Positions 5,559 to 53,800 of a stretch of 64,000 nucleotides of DNA are shown here, in pieces (within the stretch, counting starts at the first letter, position 1; each line of letters starts with the position of its first letter). The notes under the pieces are model-generated. The model saw nothing but the letters and a program-made list of their open reading frames with translations, was not told where the DNA came from and searched no databases. Source of the stretch: an uncultured Candidatus Saccharibacteria bacterium (GTDB taxonomy: Bacteria; Patescibacteriota; Minisyncoccia; Phycocordibacterales; CSBR16-119); contig CAZBAG010000002.1 of the NCBI GenBank assembly GCA_964490365.1, positions 73,486 to 137,485 of the forward strand. Reading direction: 5' to 3'. The position numbers were made by a program, and so were the translations under genes.

Positions 5559-5774
5559 TTAATTCCATTCGTCTGGGTTATATCCTCCACCACTACCACC
5601 ATATTCATCATCTTCAGCAAGATCGTCATCATCAAGACCAAGTTCATCATCTTCAGTAAGATCGTCATCATCAAGACCAAGTTCATCATCGTCGCTCATG
5701 TCGTCGTCAGTCATTGCATCGTCATTTAGCTCGCTTGTAAACAAATCATCTGAAAGTAAATCGTCTTGTCCCAT
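5559..5774 (-). CDS. highly acidic small protein with tandem repeat (Asp/Glu/Leu rich)
   Basis: 71 aa, about 45% Asp/Glu. Contains two tandem 39-nt units that encode DDELGLDDDDL(T/A)ED. It has its own terminator. A DNA-mimic or chaperone-like role is only inferred. Confidence 0.45.
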   Translation of the reverse strand: MGQDDLLSDDLFTSELNDDAMTDDDMSDDDELGLDDDDLTEDDELGLDDDDLAEDDEYGGSGGGYNPDEWN

Positions 5775-12309: not shown

Positions 12310-13797
12310 ATGAAAAACACAATCAAAAATACAACAATCGTGGCATTCGTACTGGTGTTCTCATTCTCTGGTTTCATAAACACAGCGTTTGCAGCACCAA
12401 ACGGAAACGCTACATTTTGGAATGGTGAAGAACTTGTTCCAATTTCATGGGACGGCTCATCAAATAATAATGGAGGAAATGACAACGATGATGATGACGA
12501 TAATGATAACGACGGAGATCAAGTCACAACTCTCTCAGCGACAAGTATTGATGAAGATTCAGCAGTGCTTCGAGGAGAAGTAACAAATGGAAGTAATGTA
12601 GATGTGTGGTTTGTTATCGATGATAGCGACTCAACACCTTCATGTTCTGACGATGATCTCGAAGTAAGTGTTTCAGGAGACTTTGATGACGGAGATGATT
12701 TCTCACGAACAGTTTCTAATCTTGATGAAGATGAAACATATTATTTCCGAGCGTGTACGAACGATGACCCTGGCTCAGTTCGATCATTTACAACCGACGA
12801 TGATAATGGTAACAATAATAATGACGACGATGACGATAGTGATGACAACGACAACGGAAACAATGATGAAGGTAATGTTGTAGCGTACACAAGTATTGCA
12901 ACCAATGTTACAACAAGTTCAGCGTTTCTCAACGGTGTGTCAGTTATCAATGAAGGAGGTTCTGGAAATGCATGGTTCGAATATGGTCTTACAACAGCTC
13001 TTGGTGAACGAACACCAAATCAGTCTGTTGGTAGCGGATCAAACAATGTTTCTCGACAAATTCTTAATCTTTCGCCACGAACTCCATATTATTTCAGAAT
13101 GGTTGTTCAAAACAGTGAGGGAACAGACGCAGGAGATATCTCTACATTTACAACTGGTGGTTTCTCAACAACAAACACAGGAACAACACCAAAACCTACA
13201 GGAACGACAACAACATCAGTAACAACAACTAGTGCTGTGTTTCTAGGTCTTGATATTGAATCAAACCTCGACACTGTGTCTGTTGGAGATATTGTTACCT
13301 ATACGGTTTCGTATAAAAACATTTCAGGAAAAGATCTGAAAAATGTGATTATGCAAGTTACACTTCCATACGAAGTAGCATTTCAAAAATCTACTATTGG
13401 TGGATACTCGAAACCAACACACACCGTAACAGTAACCGTTGAAACTCTTCCAAAAGATGTTAAAGGTGAATTTGTGGTGGTCGGTGAAGTTCTAAAGACT
13501 GCTCGAGGATCATCAATCCTTATTGCATCACTCCTTGGAATTCATGATCATCCAACAATCGCCGATGCGAAAGTTGATTCACTCAGTTATTCAATTATTG
13601 AAGTTGACCTGGGGAATGCAAGTCAATCTGCAAACTCAGTATTTGCAGGGACATTCTTCCCAACATCATTTATTGGATGGCTTCTGATTGTTCTGATCAT
13701 CTTCCTTATCATTCTTATTGCCCGAAAAATGGCAAAGGATAAAGAGGAACGAGAAGAACAAAAAAAGAAAGAAGAAGGAATTAAAATAGCAAAATAA
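12310..13797 (+). CDS. cell-surface protein: signal peptide, poly-Asp/Asn tracts, duplicated beta-rich modules, DUF11-like repeat, C-terminal TM anchor
   Basis: Signal peptide. NDNDDDDDNDND and NNNDDDDDSDDNDN low-complexity tracts. Two related modules (TSIDEDSAVLRGEVTNGSNVDVWF / TSIATNVTTSSAFLNGVSV...AWFEYG). VGDIVTYTVSYKNISGKDL resembles a DUF11 repeat. C-terminal hydrophobic helix plus a KKEE tail. Confidence 0.55.
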   Translation: MKNTIKNTTIVAFVLVFSFSGFINTAFAAPNGNATFWNGEELVPISWDGSSNNNGGNDNDDDDDNDNDGDQVTTLSATSIDEDSAVLRGEVTNGSNVDVWFVIDDSDSTPSCSDDDLEVSVSGDFDDGDDFSRTVSNLDEDETYYFRACTNDDPGSVRSFTTDDDNGNNNNDDDDDSDDNDNGNNDEGNVVAYTSIATNVTTSSAFLNGVSVINEGGSGNAWFEYGLTTALGERTPNQSVGSGSNNVSRQILNLSPRTPYYFRMVVQNSEGTDAGDISTFTTGGFSTTNTGTTPKPTGTTTTSVTTTSAVFLGLDIESNLDTVSVGDIVTYTVSYKNISGKDLKNVIMQVTLPYEVAFQKSTIGGYSKPTHTVTVTVETLPKDVKGEFVVVGEVLKTARGSSILIASLLGIHDHPTIADAKVDSLSYSIIEVDLGNASQSANSVFAGTFFPTSFIGWLLIVLIIFLIILIARKMAKDKEEREEQKKKEEGIKIAK

Positions 13798-20096: not shown

Positions 20097-20325
20097 GTAT
20101 AATCTAATCTTCTAAATTACTAATAGTCTGATTTTAGGTGTTTTGGGCGCTTTTCGCAAGAAACAAAAATACTTAGCAAGGTTTGATGGTTTTCTCGGTA
20201 GATCGGTCACGAGTTACTAATTCCCTTCGGTCATAAGTACTCTCGACCCCGTCTCGCGATGCTCACAGGTTCGCATAACGCTCCGACCTTCGATTCCTAC
20301 ACGAAAGCAAAACTGTTTGCTTTCT

Positions 20326-20380
20326 CGAGAGGACAAAATGAAAAACCGCCTTACGGGCGGTTTTTCATTTTGTCCTCTCG
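20326..20380 (-). terminator. 25-bp perfect inverted repeat forming the tRNA-Lys trailer hairpin/terminator
   Basis: cgagaggacaaaatgaaaaaccgcc ttac ggcggtttttcattttgtcctctcg. One arm contains the tRNA-Lys 3' acceptor strand, and the other arm is an inverted copy of that 3' end. Confidence 0.55.
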
Positions 20381-20445
20381 GTAGGAATCGAACCTACGAC
20401 CGTCTCCTTAAAAGGGAGCTGCTCTACCAACTGAGCTACGAGAGG
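20373..20445 (-). tRNA. tRNA-Lys (anticodon TTT)
   Basis: Manual cloverleaf: acceptor cctctcg/cgagagg, D-arm gctcagttggtagagc, anticodon loop cttttaa, T-arm gtaggttcgattcctac. No CCA is encoded. Confidence 0.8.
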
Positions 20446-24823: not shown

Positions 24824-24920
24824 TGTGCTCTCGGTAGGAATCGCCTCTCCCTTTGGTCGAAACGCACCATTTTTATAATCGCTTCGCTCTTTAAAAATGG
24901 GCGCCCTTGGTTCGATTCCT
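24824..24920 (-). repeat. tRNA-Arg-associated element copy 1: 20-nt direct duplicate of the tRNA 3' end plus an 84-bp conserved core
   Basis: tgtgctctcggtaggaatcg (24824-24843) repeats the tRNA-Arg 3' end at 24955-24974 with one mismatch. Bases 24837-24920 are 100% identical to 28901-28984. The core contains an imperfect hairpin (gcaccatttttat...aaaaatgggcgc) and terminal inverted ggaatcg/cgattcc. Confidence 0.7.
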
Positions 24921-24956
24921 ACCGTAAGTATAAAACTTACTTTGTTCATCCATCTG

Positions 24957-25028
24957 TGCTCTCGGCAGGAATCGAACCTACATTTTAACTTCCGCAAAGT
25001 CATGTCCTATCCATTGAACGACGAGAGC
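24957..25028 (-). tRNA. tRNA-Arg (anticodon reads GCG)
   Basis: Manual cloverleaf: acceptor gctctcg/cgagagc, D-arm gttcaatggataggac, anticodon stem tgact/agtta with loop ttgcgga, T-arm gtaggttcgattcctgc. Confidence 0.65.
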
Positions 25029-25086
25029 TCAAGGCGATAATACAATATTTCTTTTAAAAGTAAAACACCCACATAGAGTAGGTGTT

Positions 25087-28766: not shown

Positions 28767-28842
28767 TGGTGGGCGATAGAGGACTTGAACCTCTGACCTT
28801 TCCAGTGTAAATGGATTGCTCTACCAACTGAGCTAATCGCCC
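28767..28842 (-). tRNA. tRNA-Val (anticodon TAC), CCA encoded
   Basis: gggcgattagctcagttggtagagca...tttacac...ggttcaagtcctctatcgcccacca. 76 nt. Confidence 0.8.
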
Positions 28843-28885
28843 TTATTGAACCTTAAATATACATTTATTTGCAGAAAACCGCAAA

Positions 28886-28984
28886 CTTGTCCCCTCGGCA
28901 GGAATCGCCTCTCCCTTTGGTCGAAACGCACCATTTTTATAATCGCTTCGCTCTTTAAAAATGGGCGCCCTTGGTTCGATTCCT
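28886..28984 (-). repeat. tRNA-Arg-associated element copy 2: 22-nt direct duplicate of the tRNA-Arg(TCT) 3' end plus the same 84-bp core
   Basis: cttgtcccctcggcaggaatcg at 28886-28907 is identical to 29009-29030. Bases 28901-28984 are identical to 24837-24920. Confidence 0.7.
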
Positions 28985-29012
28985 TTCGAATGTTTGTAAC
29001 ACATCGGCCTTG

Positions 29013-29084
29013 TCCCCTCGGCAGGAATCGAACCTACATCGAGACCTTAGAAGAGTCCTGTTCTATCCATTGAACTACGAGGGG
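29013..29084 (-). tRNA. tRNA-Arg (anticodon TCT)
   Basis: Acceptor cccctcg/cgagggg, D-arm gttcaatggatagaac, anticodon loop cttctaa, T-arm gtaggttcgattcctgc. Confidence 0.8.
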
Positions 29085-29148
29085 TGAACGTTTGAAATAT
29101 ACCATACATGACCAAAATTTCAAGTCTAAATAGGTAGAGTGTCTTTCA

Positions 29149-38015: not shown

Positions 38016-38097
38016 GCCCAGGTGTTGAAACTGGTAGACAAGCTACCTTGAGGTGGTAGTGCTGTGAGGCGTGGAGGTTCGAGTCCTCTCCTGGGCA
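38016..38097 (+). tRNA. tRNA-Leu (anticodon GAG), long variable arm
   Basis: Acceptor gcccagg/cctgggc, anticodon stem ctacc/ggtag with loop ttgaggt, variable arm gctgtgaggcgt, T-arm ggaggttcgagtcctct. 82 nt. Confidence 0.8.
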
Positions 38098-38104
38098 CAA
38101 AAAA

Positions 38105-38136
38105 TATCCCGAATTTTTTCGGGTTTTATTTTTTGG
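38105..38136 (+). terminator. terminator after tRNA-Leu
   Basis: cccgaattttttcggg followed by a T run. Confidence 0.5.
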
Positions 38137-38219
38137 TGAGAGGACTCGAAGACCTTTTGAGCTTTTTTGTGAGTGAAACGAACACAAGAGCCAAAAGGTG
38201 TACTGCTCCTGTAAGGAGA

Positions 38220-38239
38220 GAGTCCTCTCCTGGGCACAA
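38220..38239 (+). repeat. 20-nt direct duplicate of the tRNA-Leu 3' end
   Basis: gagtcctctcctgggcacaa is identical to 38081-38100, the 3' end of tRNA-Leu plus 3 nt of trailer. An inverted T-arm-like fragment (gagaggactcgaagacc) lies between the two copies. Confidence 0.65.
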
Positions 38240-38316
38240 CATGAATTTGTAAATACTCCGCTTAGGAGTATTTTTGCTATACTAATATCTGTAGATAATT
38301 AATAGAGATAATTAAT

Positions 38317-47878: not shown

Positions 47879-50800
47879 TTGTATATGAAGTTACAAAAAG
47901 CATTCTTTCTTGTTCTCGGCCTCGCCTTTTTGGTGTCGCTGGGTTCTTTAGTTTCTGGGGCACCTGGTCAAAAAGCTCAAGTAGTTAGTGGACAAAACTC
48001 TATTGGTGTTACATCACCATCAACAAGCACTATTGTAGCAGCAGGGCAATCTGTTCCTACAACATGTCAGTATGCTACGGCGTCTGGATTCTCAGTAACG
48101 ACACTTCAGTGGTCAGCTGAGACGACAAATGATCTCGAAACACCTATTACAAGTATGGTTCCAACTGGAGCAACAGGATCTGAAACAAGAAATATCGTAG
48201 TTCCTGTTGGCGGCACTGGCTCTGTCATCTTAAAGTGTTATGCTGAATACGCAAATGCTTCTACAGGTGTTGAAATGCAAATTGCATCTCAAAGAGTTCT
48301 CAATATCTCTGGAACTGTAACACCTCCAACAAACGACACCACAGCACCTACTGTTCCATCAGGACTTACTGTAACTGCAACAAGTTACTCAAGTCTTACA
48401 CTTAACTGGACAGCATCCACAGATGCAGGTGGTGTAGCTTCATACGAGATCTTCCGAAACAATGGAGGGTCAACAGCAATCAATACAACAACTCCTATCG
48501 CTGTAGTTAATCATCCAACAACTACATATCTAAACTCAGGTCTTCTTGCGAATAAGACATATAAATATAGAATACGAGCAAAGGATACAGCGGGAAACGT
48601 TTCATCACTTACTTCAACAGTAAGTCGAACAACTCTCGCTATTGGTATACCAACAAACGTTACCATTACCAATCCAACAACTTCATCTCTTACGGTAAAC
48701 TGGACAGCGCCAACAAGTGGAGCATACGAATATGCAATTTTTGCAAACAACGGTGGTACCACAGCAATCAATACAACAACTCCTATTGCAACAGTTCCAG
48801 CGGGTGTAACAACATACACACGAACAGGACTTACTCCTGCAACTTCATATAAATTTAGAGTAGCAGCCCTTACTGATGCGGGTAGTCGATCATCTCTTAC
48901 AACTGTGAAAACAGGCGTGACAGCAAGTAGTGGACCATCTGACACCACCGCCCCAACAGTAACCATCACAGCTCCAACTGCTTCACAAGTTCTTGCAGCA
49001 GGTACTACTTCTACAAACCTTACGGTTACCACAAACGAGAATGCAACCTGTAAATGGTCAACAACCAACACAGCATACGCAAGTATGACCAACACCATGA
49101 CAGGATCTGGTTCTACTTCACACTCAGCTTCTCAAACAGGTCTTACCAATGGAACATCATACACACGATACGTATCATGTGCTGATACAGCAGGTAATGC
49201 TTCGACAACACAAAGTAGAGCGTTTAGTGTGGGATCTCCAGTTGCTGATACTACTGCACCAACATTCTCTGGTCTTGCAGCAACAGCTTCAACGGTAAAC
49301 TCAGTTACTCTTGATTGGTCAGATTCTACAGATCCTTCATCTCCGGTGACCTATAAGATTTACCGAAGCACAACTCAAACAGGAACATTTACTCAAGTTG
49401 GAGGAACTCTTTCAACAAGTGCATTTGTTGATTCTGGTCTTACTGCTTCAACAACATATTGGTATAAAGGAGTTGCTTGTGATGCGGTCAACAATTGTTC
49501 AGCTCAAAGTGCGGCGGTAAGCCGAGCAACAACTGCTGCTCCTGACACCACCGCCCCAACAGTAACCATCACAGCTCCAACTGCTTCACAAGTTCTTGCA
49601 GCAGGTACTACTTCTACAAACCTTACGGTTACCACAAACGAGAATGCAACCTGTAAATGGTCAACAACCAACACAGCATACGCAAGTATGACCAACACCA
49701 TGACAGGATCTGGTTCTACTTCACACTCAGCTTCTCAAACAGGTCTTACCAATGGAACATCATACACACGATACGTATCATGTGCTGATACAGCAGGTAA
49801 TGCTTCGACAACACAAAGTAGAGCGTTTAGTGTGGCTCTTGCAGCGCCAAGTGCACCAACCGGTGTAACAGTTGGCTCTCCAACAACTTCATCTCTTGTT
49901 GTAAACTGGACAGCAGTAACTAGTGCAACATCATACAAAGTCTATCGAGTTGCTTCAAACGGTCTTGTTGATGGGACTATTCCAGCGCTTACAGTTGCAA
50001 CACCAAACGTATCAACAACCGTTACAGGGCTTTCATCTGGTACCGCATACCGATTCCTCGTAACAGCAGTGAACTCTGTAGGCGAATCAACACTAACTCC
50101 AAGTGGAACAAACAATGCAAGTGCAACAACATCTTCACCACAAATTACTGTTTCATCACTTGAACTTGTTCGAACAAACGGAACAGTTGTTGAATCACTC
50201 GATGGAGGAGAATCAATTAACGTTGGAACTCAAAATGGAGGAGTGGGTCCAAACATTTCAGTACGAGCAAGCACAAACCCAGCTACTCCAGGAAGTGTTG
50301 TATTCTCTCTCCAAAAACCAAACAGTACAACACACACACTTACTGAAAACTCTGCGCCATATACGTTGTTCGGCGACACCAGTGACACAGTGATTGTTGC
50401 TTGGCAAAACCTTCTTCCAGGAGGATATACACTAACTGTAACTCCATACGCAGGTACAAATGGAACAGGACAAGTTGGAGTACCACGAACAGTGCAATTC
50501 CAAATTGTAAACAATGATGACACCACAGCACCAGTAAACCCAACAAACGTTGCGATTACGTATCGATCAGCATCTCAACTTAAAGTTGGATGGACTAATT
50601 CAACATCATCTGATGTTGCTTCATATCGAGTCTACCGAGACAACGTTTCTATGGGTGTTGTGAATCATCCAACAAATACATTTACTGATACATCAGTAAA
50701 TGCGACAGGAAACTATGTATACAAAGCAGTAGCAATTGACACATCAAACAATGAAGCAACTCTTCCAGGAACTGGTGTAACTTCGCCAACACTTTCTACA

Positions 50801-53800
50801 GCCTTCGTACTTAACAATCAAGTAGAAACAAATACAAGTGCTCAGGTTAAATCAGCACCTGAATCAACAACTGTTGCTGGTACACAAGCAACAGGTTCTA
50901 TTGGAACAATAACAAACGGACCAGTATGGGTAACAGGCGGTGTTCAACACTGGTATGTTAACTTTAACTCAGGTACTGATGGTTGGGTAAACCAAGCTAA
51001 TCTTGACCTCTATACAGCACCAACAACTGATACTACTGCGCCAGCATATCCAGGAGGAAATGCAGCATTTACCGTAACAGCAGGATCACAAACATCACTC
51101 GTCCTTGATTGGGCAGATGCAACAGACGCAACAGCTCCAGTAACATATAAAGTTTCAAGAAGTACTTCTGCAAGTGGACCATTTACTCAAGTTTCTCCAG
51201 CATTCACAGCAAGTACCTTTAACGACAACAACGCTGGTCTTACCGCAGGATCAACACGATACTACCAATTGATTGCTTGTGACGCCGTAACGCCAACTCA
51301 AAACTGTACAACACCAATTGTTCAAGGGGGTACAACTTCACCTGTTGTTGATACGACTGCTCCAACAGTAACGATTTCAGCGCCAACAGCAAATGAAGTA
51401 TTCCCATCAGGAACAACCAACGCAACACTTACTGTTTCTACGAACGAACCAGCAACCTGTAAATGGTCAACAACCAACACAGCATACGCAAGTATGACCA
51501 ACACCATGACAGGATCTGGTTCTACTTCACACTCAGCTTCTCAAACAGGTCTTACCAATGGAACATCATACACACGATACGTATCATGTGCTGATACAGC
51601 AGGTAATGCTTCGACAACACAAAGTAGAGCGTTTAGTGTGGCCGTGTTTGTTCCTGACACAACAGCTCCAGCCGGAACCTTAAACCCAGTAGTAGGTTCT
51701 CCTACATCAAGTAGTCTCACTGTTTCTTGGTCAGCTCTTACCGATTCAACAACACCAATTAACTACCGACTCTACCGAAGCACAACTCAAACAGGAACAT
51801 TTACACAAGTTGGTGGAAATATTACTGGTACATCATATGTTGACACTGGACGATCTGCTTCAACAACATATTGGTATAAAGTAGATGCCTGTGATAGTGC
51901 TACGACACCAAACTGTACTTCTCAATCAGCGGCAGTAAGTGGAACAACTGTTTCAGAGGGAACTGAACCACCAATTACTACAACATGTCCTACAATGCCT
52001 TCAATTACTGGAGACATTCACACACAAAAAGCAGTACAACTATGTGCAGAAATTTCAAACAACCCAAATAGAATCACTCTTAAGTGGGCAAACGTTTCAG
52101 GAAGAACGCAAACAAGTGCAACAATCTCAAGAAAAGCTGGCCTAGCTTCAACCTCATTCACTTCACTAGGAACAGTATCAGGTAATGCAACAAGTTACGT
52201 TGATAACACTGCGGTTGCTGGAACATACTATGAATACAAGGTTCAAGTAAACTCAAATGCATACGGATATATTGCTGCTGGAATCAATGTTCCTCAAGAA
52301 TCATATCGAGGTAAAATGGTTCTTGTTATCGACAACACATTCCAAACATCACTCGCATCACAAATTAGCACACTCGTAGATGACCTTACAGCTGATAAAT
52401 GGGTGGTAATACCAAAATATGTAAGTCGAAGTGATACACCAACAACAGTTCGAAATGCTATTAAAGCAGAATACGATGCCGATCCAACAAACGTAAAGGC
52501 CGTATATCTTCTTGGACACGTTCCTGTTCCACGAGCTGGAAACTTCAATGGTGATGGACATGGATCACGTGCGCTTTCAACTGATACATATTATGGAGAA
52601 ATGACTCAAGAGTTCAATAAACTCTCAAATGGATGTACACCATATACAGAAATCTCAAACATACCAGCTGGCCCGTCTGATTGGAGTCTATCGCCGATAA
52701 ACTACTCTCAATGGCAAAGTCCATATCAAGTGAGTTCATTTATGCCAATTCCACCAACGACTCATAAATTCTGTCTTACAAGTGGTCAAACTCCTTCTGC
52801 TCTTGAACTGCAAGTTGGACGAGTAGATATGTTTGCGCTTACAGTCTATAGTCAATCAGAACAAACACTACTTTCAAACTATCTAACAAAAGCAAGAGAA
52901 TTTAAGAGAAAAGTGTGGACACCGGTAAAAAGAGCATTTATCCGAGATGGACTTATCTATCAAGGATATGATGGAGGTAAGTTCGTATGGGGGATGTTGC
53001 CATCTATTGTTGGACCACTTGTCGGATCAAACATTACGGCAGATAACGGTGTAAGTAGTATGGCCGCAATGAACACGGCAACATCAAGTGCAAATACATA
53101 CTTGTTTACGTCGTTACGATACGGAGGTACAACAACTGCTGTTGACTATGCTGGAGGTACGGCTCTTGGTAGTAGTTATACACATGCATCATCAGGATTT
53201 GAAATGGGTGGTGTGTTTAATCAATATGTAGCAAGTTATATTCCAGAATGGGGAGACTATAATGCACTTCTTCGAGCCGCTCTTGCTGATGGTAAGGCTC
53301 TCGCTTCTATGCATGGTGATGACCGAAACTGGTACTTGCATTCAATGGGTCTTGGTCAAAATATTGGTTACGCAGGTAAGATGACTGTAAATAACACAAC
53401 CTCACTATATGTTCCAGTCGGAGGTATCTGGGATAGCAACTATGGCGGTAATGGGTTTATGTCACTTCTTGGCGATCCATCACTACGAGCTGAATATGTT
53501 GCTCCGGTTTCTTCTCTCACACTTTCAAACAGCTCTGGTAAGACAGCAATGTCATGGCCAGCAGCTTCAAGTGCTACTCATGGGTATAATGTATACAAAA
53601 TAACTTCAGGTGGTATTACAAAACTTAATGGAGCACCGATCACAGGAACAAGTTACACTTCAACAGATAACTATACTTCAGGAAACAAATACATGGTTAC
53701 TGCAGTAAAACTTGAAACAACAAACGGTGGAACATATTACAATGAATCGCTTGGTGCAATTGCAACAGTCGGTGGGGTGGCCTCAGATACGACGGCCCCC

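Follow-up and report, generated by a model that had tools for sequence, protein, structure and literature searches.

The window analysed here is a stretch of 64,000 nucleotides (nt) from contig CAZBAG010000002.1 (assembly GCA_964490365.1) of an uncultured Candidatus Saccharibacteria bacterium, taken here as a tiny-genome member of the Paceibacteria. It carries two arginine transfer RNA (tRNA) genes, tRNA-Arg(GCG) and tRNA-Arg(UCU), and downstream of each, on the minus strand, lies a copy of the same short block (Table 1). A first-pass annotation, made from the sequence alone, had described this block as identical between 24837-24920 and 28901-28984; the identity is indeed 100%, and the block is one base longer, with 85 nt shared between 24836-24920 and 28900-28984. 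The placement of each copy behind a different tRNA-Arg gene was likewise borne out, with gaps of 35 nt for tRNA-Arg(GCG) and 27 nt for tRNA-Arg(UCU). When sub-patterns of 27 and 29 nt were searched with up to three mismatches, the two block copies were the only matches in the 64-kb window, where 0 were expected. Copy 1 is situated between tRNA-Arg(GCG) and a 193-aa gene, and copy 2 within a unit made up of tRNA-Arg, module and tRNA-Val.

Each copy is accompanied by a direct repeat of the 3' end of its own tRNA gene, here called the replica. At copy 1, 24824-24843 agrees with 24955-24974 at 19 of 20 positions, and at copy 2, 28886-28907 agrees with 29009-29030 at 22 of 22. Both repeats begin at C56 in the T-loop, take in the acceptor 3' strand and end 2-4 nt beyond the discriminator, and at both copies they overlap the core, with which they share GGAATCG. 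The ends of the core are inverted (AGGAATCG and CGATTCCT) over a perfect 8 bp, or 12 bp in copy 1, in agreement with the first-pass annotation. The outer flanks of copy 1 and copy 2 are unrelated, as are the linkers that join block and tRNA (30 and 24 nt). The two copies therefore did not arise by segmental duplication of one locus, a possibility that had been raised beforehand. The start of linker 1 partly resembles a remnant module at locus L017 (GATGGATGAAC versus GATGAAAGAAC; collected loci are cited by number), and replica 1 retains the CCTACC state found in the tRNA-Arg(GCG) of relatives.

Related modules at other tRNA genes

Further copies were sought with a 23-nt pattern in one genome per species and with a 20-nt pattern in JGI metagenomes. 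The former scan gave five loci in four genomes, three of them labelled Paceibacterota or Parcubacteria and one Saccharibacteria, and the latter gave eight metagenome contigs. Paceibacteria genomes and metagenomes gave 12 further loci with related copies. Wherever the sequence upstream of a copy is visible, the copy is preceded by a tRNA on the same strand, namely Arg-GCG, Arg-UCU, Arg-CCG, Lys-UUU or Gly-CCC; the contig of L009 stops before any tRNA is visible. The scattering over non-tRNA loci that would mark a generic miniature inverted-repeat transposable element (MITE) is thus not what was found. Related modules also occur at tRNA-Leu, Val, Ser and Ala.

At most loci the end of the copy consists of CGATTCC followed by the T-stem 3' strand, the acceptor 3' strand and the first trailer bases of its own tRNA. 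The proposal that the flanking repeat is tRNA-specific and derived from the target held at every tRNA species examined. A script run across the collected loci looked up to 450 nt downstream of each tRNA for 18 nt of its 3' end, with at most one mismatch allowed, and detected such a copy at nine tRNAs, which is far beyond chance; the nine include the window tRNA-Leu and the tRNA-Val of L007, whose module bodies differ.

A covariance model built from 12 members and run over 145 kb gave no match away from a tRNA. It picked up the module at the window tRNA-Leu as a distant full-length relative (23.8 bits, E = 0.002). This module differs in sequence and shares the architecture: a terminator, an inverted T-arm, a long hairpin whose apex likewise has the tandem G.A motif, a short hairpin and a replica. 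The module at the window tRNA-Lys has a longer body, termed type B, with the motifs GGGGTCGAGAG and TTAGTAA..CGTGACC in common with the modules of L003, L007 and L024. A perfect 25-bp palindromic terminator at this locus (20326-20380) takes in the tRNA acceptor 3' strand. No module is present at the window tRNA-Ser, tRNA-Val or tRNA-His. The contigs of L004 and L014 (CAZJZW010000002.1, JACCDG010026350.1) are labelled Candidatus Saccharibacteria, yet they are syntenic with the window at tRNA-Lys, with a neighbouring protein 85% identical; the Saccharibacteria label or binning of L004 and L014 is doubtful.

The neighbours of the copies are housekeeping genes (RuvA, Mur ligases, MurB, LepA, S20, SpoU and similar), and no integrase, transposase, reverse transcriptase or Cas1 was seen nearby. 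The module matched nothing in viral, phage and plasmid collections (IMG/VR patterns, INPHARED and PLSDB), and a phage or plasmid origin was rejected on these grounds. Rfam returned no module match at E <= 1 for the part of the window from 20 to 40 kb or at E <= 0.1 for six loci, and literature searches turned up no described equivalent. The module is a previously unrecorded, covariation-supported family of structured elements. Our tentative reading, held at somewhat less than even confidence, is that the 85-nt repeat forms the conserved core of an insertion module that is small, structured and non-autonomous and is specialised for the 3' ends of tRNA genes within one clade of Paceibacteria.

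Table 1. Coordinates of the modules and associated features. Positions refer to the window unless a locus number is given; IR-L, inverted T-arm segment; P1 to P3, helices of the core.
Feature	Position	Strand	Basis or remark
tRNA-Arg(GCG)	24956..25028	-	ARAGORN; Rfam tRNA 57.5 bits
Promoter-like site TTTACT-16-TATTAT	25037..25064	-	consensus scan; 8 nt upstream of tRNA-Arg(GCG)
Template of repeat 1: tRNA-Arg(GCG) 3' segment, C56 to discriminator +2	24955-24974	-	sequence comparison
Linker 1, locus-specific	24925..24954	-	small hairpin 24924-24940; unrelated to linker 2
IR-L of copy 1, minus-strand CGGTAGGAATCGAACC	24909..24924	-	complementary to tRNA G52-G67 and replica start
Core copy 1	24836..24920	-	identical to 28900-28984; covariation on 12 homologues; covariance model 120.9 bits
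P1 of copy 1	24913-24919 with 24837-24843
P2 of copy 1, long hairpin	24861-24905
P3 of copy 1, short hairpin	24846-24860
Replica ('tail') of tRNA-Arg(GCG) 3' end, CGATTCCTACCGAGAGCACA	24824..24843	-	19/20 to tRNA
tRNA-Arg(UCU)	29012..29084	-	ARAGORN; Rfam
Promoter-like site TTGAAA-16-TATATT, TG before	29096-29123	-	consensus scan; 11 nt upstream of tRNA-Arg(UCU)
Linker 2, locus-specific	28985..29008	-	not present in L027 empty site
Core copy 2	28900..28984	-	IR-L 28973-28984, P2 28925-28969, P3 28910-28924; covariance model 116.7 bits
Replica of tRNA-Arg(UCU) 3' end + 4 nt trailer, CGATTCCTGCCGAGGGGACAAG	28886..28907	-	22/22; replica and following DNA colinear with empty site
Spacer between replica 2 and tRNA-Val	28843..28885	-	resembles first ~25 nt of GIY-YIG ORF of L013/L027: AAATAAATGTATATTTAAGG versus AAATATGTTTTATGTGTATATTTTAAGG, 18/20-type similarity
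tRNA-Val	28767-28842		downstream of copy 2
Distant module after tRNA-Leu(GAG) (38016-38098)	38131..38241	+	covariance model, full length
IR-L of tRNA-Leu module, GAGAGGACTCGAA	38138-38150
Replica of tRNA-Leu module, GAGTCCTCTCCTGGGCACA	38220-38238
Module after tRNA-Lys (20372-20445)	20193..20380	-	palindrome, hairpin, IR-L GTAGGAATCGAA, type B body, degenerate replica CGATCTACCGAGA (20193-20205)
GIY-YIG genes, 84-91 aa	L013 2210-2523; L021 1455-1775; L024 1460-1775; L026 1160-1480; L027 1201-1495; L028 1165-1490
GCGAAGC mini-hairpin sites	L012 793-812 (-); L018 830-845 and 700-720 (-); window 24876-24886

Fold and transcription of the module

Read along the tRNA strand, a module consists of a linker of 0-70 nt that often holds a terminator hairpin, the inverted T-arm segment (IR-L), the body, GAGAGG and the replica, which starts from C56. 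IR-L has the form (GGTAGG)AATCGAACC, the T-loop and the 3' strand of the T-stem in reverse complement; occasionally it reaches into the complement of the acceptor strand (L009, L012). An alignment of 12 members supports three helices. In P1, IR-L is paired with the beginning of the replica. The arms of the long hairpin P2 vary among genomes with complementarity retained, and P2 carries a conserved bulge, an invariant G.U pair and an apex of tandem G.A, 2 bp and a GAA-type loop. P3 is short (UCUC-GA-CC-AAA-GG-GA-GAGA).

Across this alignment 89% of the cells are paired. The covariation score is 0.279, compared with 0.136 for shuffles (0 of 500 reach it) and 0.05-0.10 for slid controls, and in P2 both sides have changed in 7 of 12 pairs. 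The minus (tRNA-sense) strand of the window block folds better than its shuffles (z = -5.9). With 26 G.U against 6 A.C pairs on the tRNA strand, the tRNA-sense strand is therefore the folding strand; the G.U excess alone does not separate RNA from single-stranded DNA. The 3' 26 nt belonged to the search patterns, so that invariance there is partly circular; the invariant 5' junction bases, GAATCGAACC..GG, lay outside them. The left junction is at C56 in four body types, and U55|C56 is fixed in all body types. A structured small RNA, one of the candidates named in the first-pass annotation, is thus well supported by covariation.

A mini-hairpin, GCGAAGC with flanking G.A pairs (AGCGAAGCGA), recurs at module apices and in linkers between the tRNA and the inverted T-arm. 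In DNA, d(GCGAAGC) forms an unusually stable mini-hairpin, and given this hairpin a role of the module as single-stranded DNA is possible.

Several known identities were tried and rejected. Two shared open reading frames (ORFs; 60 and 53 aa) are spurious, as the homologues keep pairing and not the reading frame. Known RNA families and ribozymes, including group I and II introns, tmRNA and riboswitches, were set aside because Rfam gave no match, and a hammerhead because the core CUGANGA/GAAA was not seen by eye on either strand. The antisense segment is not followed by C/D boxes, and the terminal ACA is the discriminator plus CA, shared by most tRNA genes examined. A group I intron in the T-loop does not apply, since the tRNA is complete without splicing; the tRNA introns described in Patescibacteria are in the anticodon loop (bioRxiv 10.1101/2025.07.03.662931; PMC13011429). 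Split or permuted tRNAs were dismissed because the upstream tRNAs are complete.

In the window, a consensus scan found no promoter-like or terminator-like site between either tRNA-Arg and its module, and the module is therefore expected to be co-transcribed with the tRNA. Also if the module is an insertion, its conserved fold may have a function as RNA. At other loci a strong terminator stands ahead of the module and another after the replica. The module might be a cis-acting RNA device, co-transcribed with the tRNA and without dedicated mobility, a reading that we regard as possible but unlikely. The anti-T-arm could pair either with the tRNA T-arm and 3' strand or with the replica, and the replica could substitute for the tRNA 3' strand. 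Modelled as a built-in strand swap, for which we see only a modest chance, one state would release the tRNA together with a closed three-way junction and the other would lock the precursor or turn it into a long tRNA-like RNA with the replica in its acceptor stem. The conserved, P1-closed junction might be the sensor or protein-binding part that decides between the two states, which would make the device a regulator of tRNA folding or maturation itself, again an unlikely though conceivable role.

Covariation and strand asymmetry favour a folded tRNA-sense strand, and promoter-like sites in the window lie upstream of the tRNAs only, with no terminator between tRNA and module. For each of 10 loci out of 10, the fold of lowest energy predicted for tRNA and module together has the replica paired to the 5' acceptor strand, and IR-L to the native T-arm and 3' strand. 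Its predicted advantage over the native arrangement is 6-22 kcal/mol, in energies that leave out co-transcriptional folding and tRNA tertiary structure and to that extent count less for the device. IR-L follows the tRNA T-loop variant in all four variants seen; at L004 the tRNA has A57, IR-L has the matching T, and the replica retains G. Replicas follow lineage-specific changes of the acceptor (L012, L017), which the three-segment arrangement would explain, and at L010 a truncated tRNA-Gly is accompanied by a rearranged module with an insertion in the replica. The device is opposed by an empty orthologous site (L027), by the replacement of the body at the tRNA-Lys of the close relative L004, by replicas that are decayed or absent at L004, L007, L011 and L017, and by the strong terminator that separates tRNA and module at many loci.

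Among known systems, the module resembles the expression platform of a riboswitch in that its three segments (tRNA 3' end, complement and replica) allow two mutually exclusive pairings. Like the spacer and trailer RNAs of tRNA operons, it lies within a predicted tRNA transcription unit and has a covarying multi-helix fold with conserved junction nucleotides. Unlike them, it has no Rfam match, its competing segments are copies of the adjacent tRNA, and between close relatives it may be present or absent or have its body replaced. A non-mobile RNA function is compatible with a mobile origin followed by co-option.

Empty site, duplication length and turnover

Occupied and empty alleles of one site were found in related genomes, as in homing systems. 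At L027, tRNA-Arg(UCU) has no module: ...GGGGACAAG continues directly into TTTGAGGTTGCTTTTAATATG, and the GIY-YIG ORF before tRNA-Val is intact. At L013 the same tRNA has a module and a replica, with the GIY-YIG ORF also intact. The window has a module and a replica, and before its tRNA-Val only a probable GIY-YIG remnant of ~25 nt. The sequence that directly follows the L027 tRNA is placed, in the window and in L013, after the replica and not after the tRNA. The module is therefore a 123-bp insertion bounded by a 22-bp target repeat, and the replica with its downstream DNA is, judging from this alignment, the original DNA. Four nt of non-tRNA trailer lie inside the repeat and occur once in the empty site; the repeat was therefore copied from DNA or precursor and not from mature tRNA. 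A retro-copy of mature tRNA is likewise rejected, because the replica has genomic trailer (CA, CAAG) and not CCA.

Inserts measure 123-131 bp. The duplicated length varies from 20 to ~65 nt, and in L003 and at the tRNA-Val of L007 the similarity runs ~45 nt into the terminator, with a score that 0 of 300 shuffles reach. Tandem arrays are present at L005 and L003; at L005 the core is directly flanked by the repeat, in tandem and with no linker. A window-type core (94% identical) follows tRNA-Lys at L004, where the window has a different body. Remnants occur at L010 and L017, the latter retaining only 22 nt and part of the replica. Core identity groups by genome, whichever the tRNA: it reaches 100% in the window and 97% in VMEM01, the Arg(CCG) and Gly(CCC) cores of one genome are 97% identical, and orthologous loci in other genomes show 88% (L013) and 67-90%. 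The best reading of the 85 identical nt is therefore a tract, bounded by sequence derived from the T-loop, along which copying or conversion between two paralogous modules can take place.

Two unusual arrangements were seen alongside. At L008 (600-880), L010 (2265-2470, minus strand) and L015, a second, fragmentary tRNA-Gly(CCC), beginning in the anticodon loop, comes after an intact tRNA-Gly(CCC). The module body of L010 and L015 stands directly between the T-stem 5' strand and CGATTCCCG of this fragment, with an extra 14-nt insertion in the replica. Logan contig SRR10036065_49420 (L001, 1-175) leads from the 3' end of tRNA-Arg(UCU) and linker 2, via the core, to replica 1 and the 193-aa gene. 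This join is the expected product of recombination between the two window copies, with a 4,064-bp deletion, and an assembly chimera across the repeat is equally possible.

The first-pass annotation had proposed site-specific integration into the tRNA 3' end. Insertion next to or into that end is upheld by the empty site of L027. The attL/attR integrase type is not, as the same core occurs at different tRNAs, linker and duplication are variable, and no integrase is present. Its further suggestion, the decayed end of a larger island, is contradicted by housekeeping genes on both flanks and by the lack of an integrase or transposase there. The pattern could still be the footprint of a tyrosine or serine integrase acting at the T-loop, either with the element mostly deleted or with a tiny cassette integrated in trans, and we hold this to be very unlikely. 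Elements that integrate at tRNA genes have as their textbook signature a block of identity that starts in the T-loop and stops shortly after the tRNA, as Williams is said to have described in 2002. As at tRNA att sites, such direct repeats stand on both sides of the module, with the tRNA kept intact at one flank and a displaced 3' fragment at the opposite flank. The variable length of the block, which sometimes includes the terminator, would fit a copy borne by the element, and so would the status of the replica and downstream flank as original DNA. The integrase footprint is at odds with the finding that one and the same core is accompanied by whichever end is cognate to its tRNA, also inside a single genome: the identical core occurs at Arg(GCG) and Arg(UCU) with different cognate repeats, whereas an att element keeps to one tRNA. 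Random deletions would not be expected to give inserts of 123-131 bp with a constant inner boundary. Neither an adjoining integrase nor kb-sized cargo was found between the syntenic housekeeping genes, and the inverted T-arm copy and the covarying RNA-like fold set the module apart from att sites.

A miniature transposon with terminal inverted repeats, MITE-like or mini-casposon-like, was also considered; it would have T-arm-like ends and depend on an enzyme supplied in trans, with a staggered cut and a 14-22-bp target-site duplication. The perfect inverted repeats at the module ends resemble the T-loop, the empty site exists, and the tandem L005 core abuts its repeat with no linker, all of which would suit such an element. 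Casposons, moreover, insert at tRNA 3' ends, and in Methanosarcina mazei a 14-bp duplication overlaps the tRNA end (PMC6977970); the module shares with casposons and MITEs its terminal inverted repeats, tRNA 3'-end preference, tRNA-overlapping duplication and tandem insertions. A fixed-length duplication abutting the element is, however, not what the loci display, because a locus-specific linker of 0-70 nt separates the left repeat from the left end and the duplication ranges from 20-22 nt in the window to ~65 nt at L003 and the tRNA-Val of L007, where it takes in the terminator. Representative genomes hold 1-2 exact-motif copies, a very low number, with none away from tRNAs in the 145 kb. No transposase, casposase or Cas1 gene was seen near any copy, and the searches of phage, plasmid and viral collections were negative. 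We therefore consider a miniature transposon unlikely. A mariner-type TA target duplication fits copy 1 only and was rejected.

REP and REPIN sequences are also intergenic hairpin repeats downstream of genes, near-identical within a genome and diverged between genomes. REPINs, in contrast, reach copy numbers in the tens to hundreds, show no link to tRNAs and have no locus-specific copies of a neighbouring gene; low copy number and gene-specific flanks rule out membership.

GIY-YIG nucleases and a possible origin by repair

The ORF adjoining the L013 replica encodes a 91-aa GIY-YIG protein (Pfam E = 2.7e-17). More than 800 homologues were found, those with a named source all being Patescibacteria, and many stand on short contigs. 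The six contexts sampled all place the GIY-YIG gene immediately upstream of a tRNA (Val, Ala three times, Val and Ile). Each has a copy of tRNA nucleotides 1-12, with up to 5 leader bases, and palindromic arms of ~12-20 bp, CCCCTCACYCAG...CTGRGTGAGGGG, whose last bases are the first bases of the tRNA. Taken with the 3' modules, both termini of tRNA genes in the clade therefore carry palindromic cassettes with duplicated tRNA ends, and the cassette junctions fall in universally conserved tRNA motifs, the D-arm (12|13) and the T-loop (55|56). No GIY-YIG gene adjoins any module other than that of L013; in the window lineage such a gene was probably deleted at 28843-28885, to judge by the residual similarity there. 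At L024 (1820-2035), tRNA-Ala(UGC) has both a 5' GIY-YIG cassette and a 3' module, the latter starting with a palindrome of ~45 bp that runs from the T-loop through the trailer.

The phage T6 enzyme SegB, a GIY-YIG nuclease lodged among tRNA genes, cuts within tRNA genes and prefers the motif RAWTSGAAC (PMC13096335); its breaks lead to recombination-dependent segmental amplification (PMC13096335; PMC2330249). RAWTSGAAC is a complement of the T-loop and is matched by GAATCGAAC, the inner part of IR-L. The small GIY-YIG proteins of the clade, with their genes at tRNA 5' ends and their analogous duplications, are candidates for a nuclease that would break the T-loop. The likeness to SegB of phages T4 and T6 covers the nuclease gene among tRNA genes, the motif at the inner left end of the module, the duplication of tRNA segments through breaks, and the clade's GIY-YIG genes at tRNA 5' ends with duplicated termini. 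The module itself, on the other hand, encodes nothing; SegB amplifies whole genes in tandem, with no structured insert and 20-nt replica; and the clade proteins, at 85-91 aa, are catalytic domains only and sit on the 5' side of tRNAs.

We tentatively propose, at the same less-than-even confidence as the insertion module itself, that a break in the T-loop was followed by repair that copied the core in and re-created the tRNA end. First, a double-strand break would arise in the T-loop DNA of a tRNA gene. The broken end starting with CGATTCC would then prime on the matching right end of a core elsewhere and copy that core, while the other end would be extended on an intact copy of the tRNA gene, restoring the tRNA 3' end over a variable distance, and the two ends would finally be joined. 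Such a scheme would explain why the junction is fixed at U55|C56, why the replica is that of the tRNA concerned, why the duplication varies in length, why each locus has a linker of its own, and why cores are identical within a genome and specific to it.

Several observations weigh against insertion by break and repair. The scheme is a reconstruction, and it leaves unexplained why copying stops at IR-L, why IR-L may extend into the acceptor-strand complement, and why the core is under strong constraint. The conserved junction nucleotides, invariant G.U pair and bulges point to a function of the folded strand and would not be needed by a passive passenger. The site of L027 might have been emptied secondarily, when its repeats recombined, instead of never having been occupied. 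A cognate duplicate had been anticipated at every copy; most loci have one, but L007 and L011 carry the core without a replica. The exact-motif copies, very few per representative genome, are all tRNA-linked, and at some loci the modules are old. The candidate nucleases consist of the catalytic domain only, their genes stand at tRNA 5' and not 3' ends, and the window holds no GIY-YIG gene beyond its putative remnant.

A further reading is neutral growth of palindromes, in which template switching at terminator hairpins beside tRNA genes would make the inverted and direct copies of the tRNA end, with the hairpin core hitch-hiking. Long perfect palindromes do include the tRNA acceptor strand (window 20326-20380, L007, L012, L024), and IR-L tracks the T-loop variant of its tRNA. 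Some 26 invariant core nucleotides, the invariant G.U, the bulges and the tandem G.A motifs nevertheless persist while the hairpin arms diverge, and the junction is constant at C56; we find this the least likely of the explanations weighed. In its workings the module comes closest to an insertion by homing or repair at a site sensitive to a nuclease, accompanied by partial duplication of a gene, through which this essential gene is preserved.

Other repeats were noted in the window. Long direct repeats at 48389-51895 (300 nt three times at 83-97% identity, with 177-nt and 77-nt repeats spaced 603 and 1206 nt apart) probably represent the gene of a repeat-domain surface protein. Short-period GAT/GAC-rich coding repeats of acidic low complexity are found at 5598-5714 and 12464-12865.

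If the modules do arise by repair or homing, tRNA genes of the Candidate Phyla Radiation would be colonised at both ends by small cassettes that re-create the tRNA terminus. Selfish DNA could then live inside essential, conserved genes without introns, and the abundant small GIY-YIG nucleases of the phylum would be tied to a concrete target. If instead the module works as RNA, it would be a regulator acting directly on tRNA folding. In practical terms, the modules break short-read assemblies at tRNA loci, and where duplicated tRNA 3' ends are used to annotate the boundaries of genomic islands, they could be misleading.

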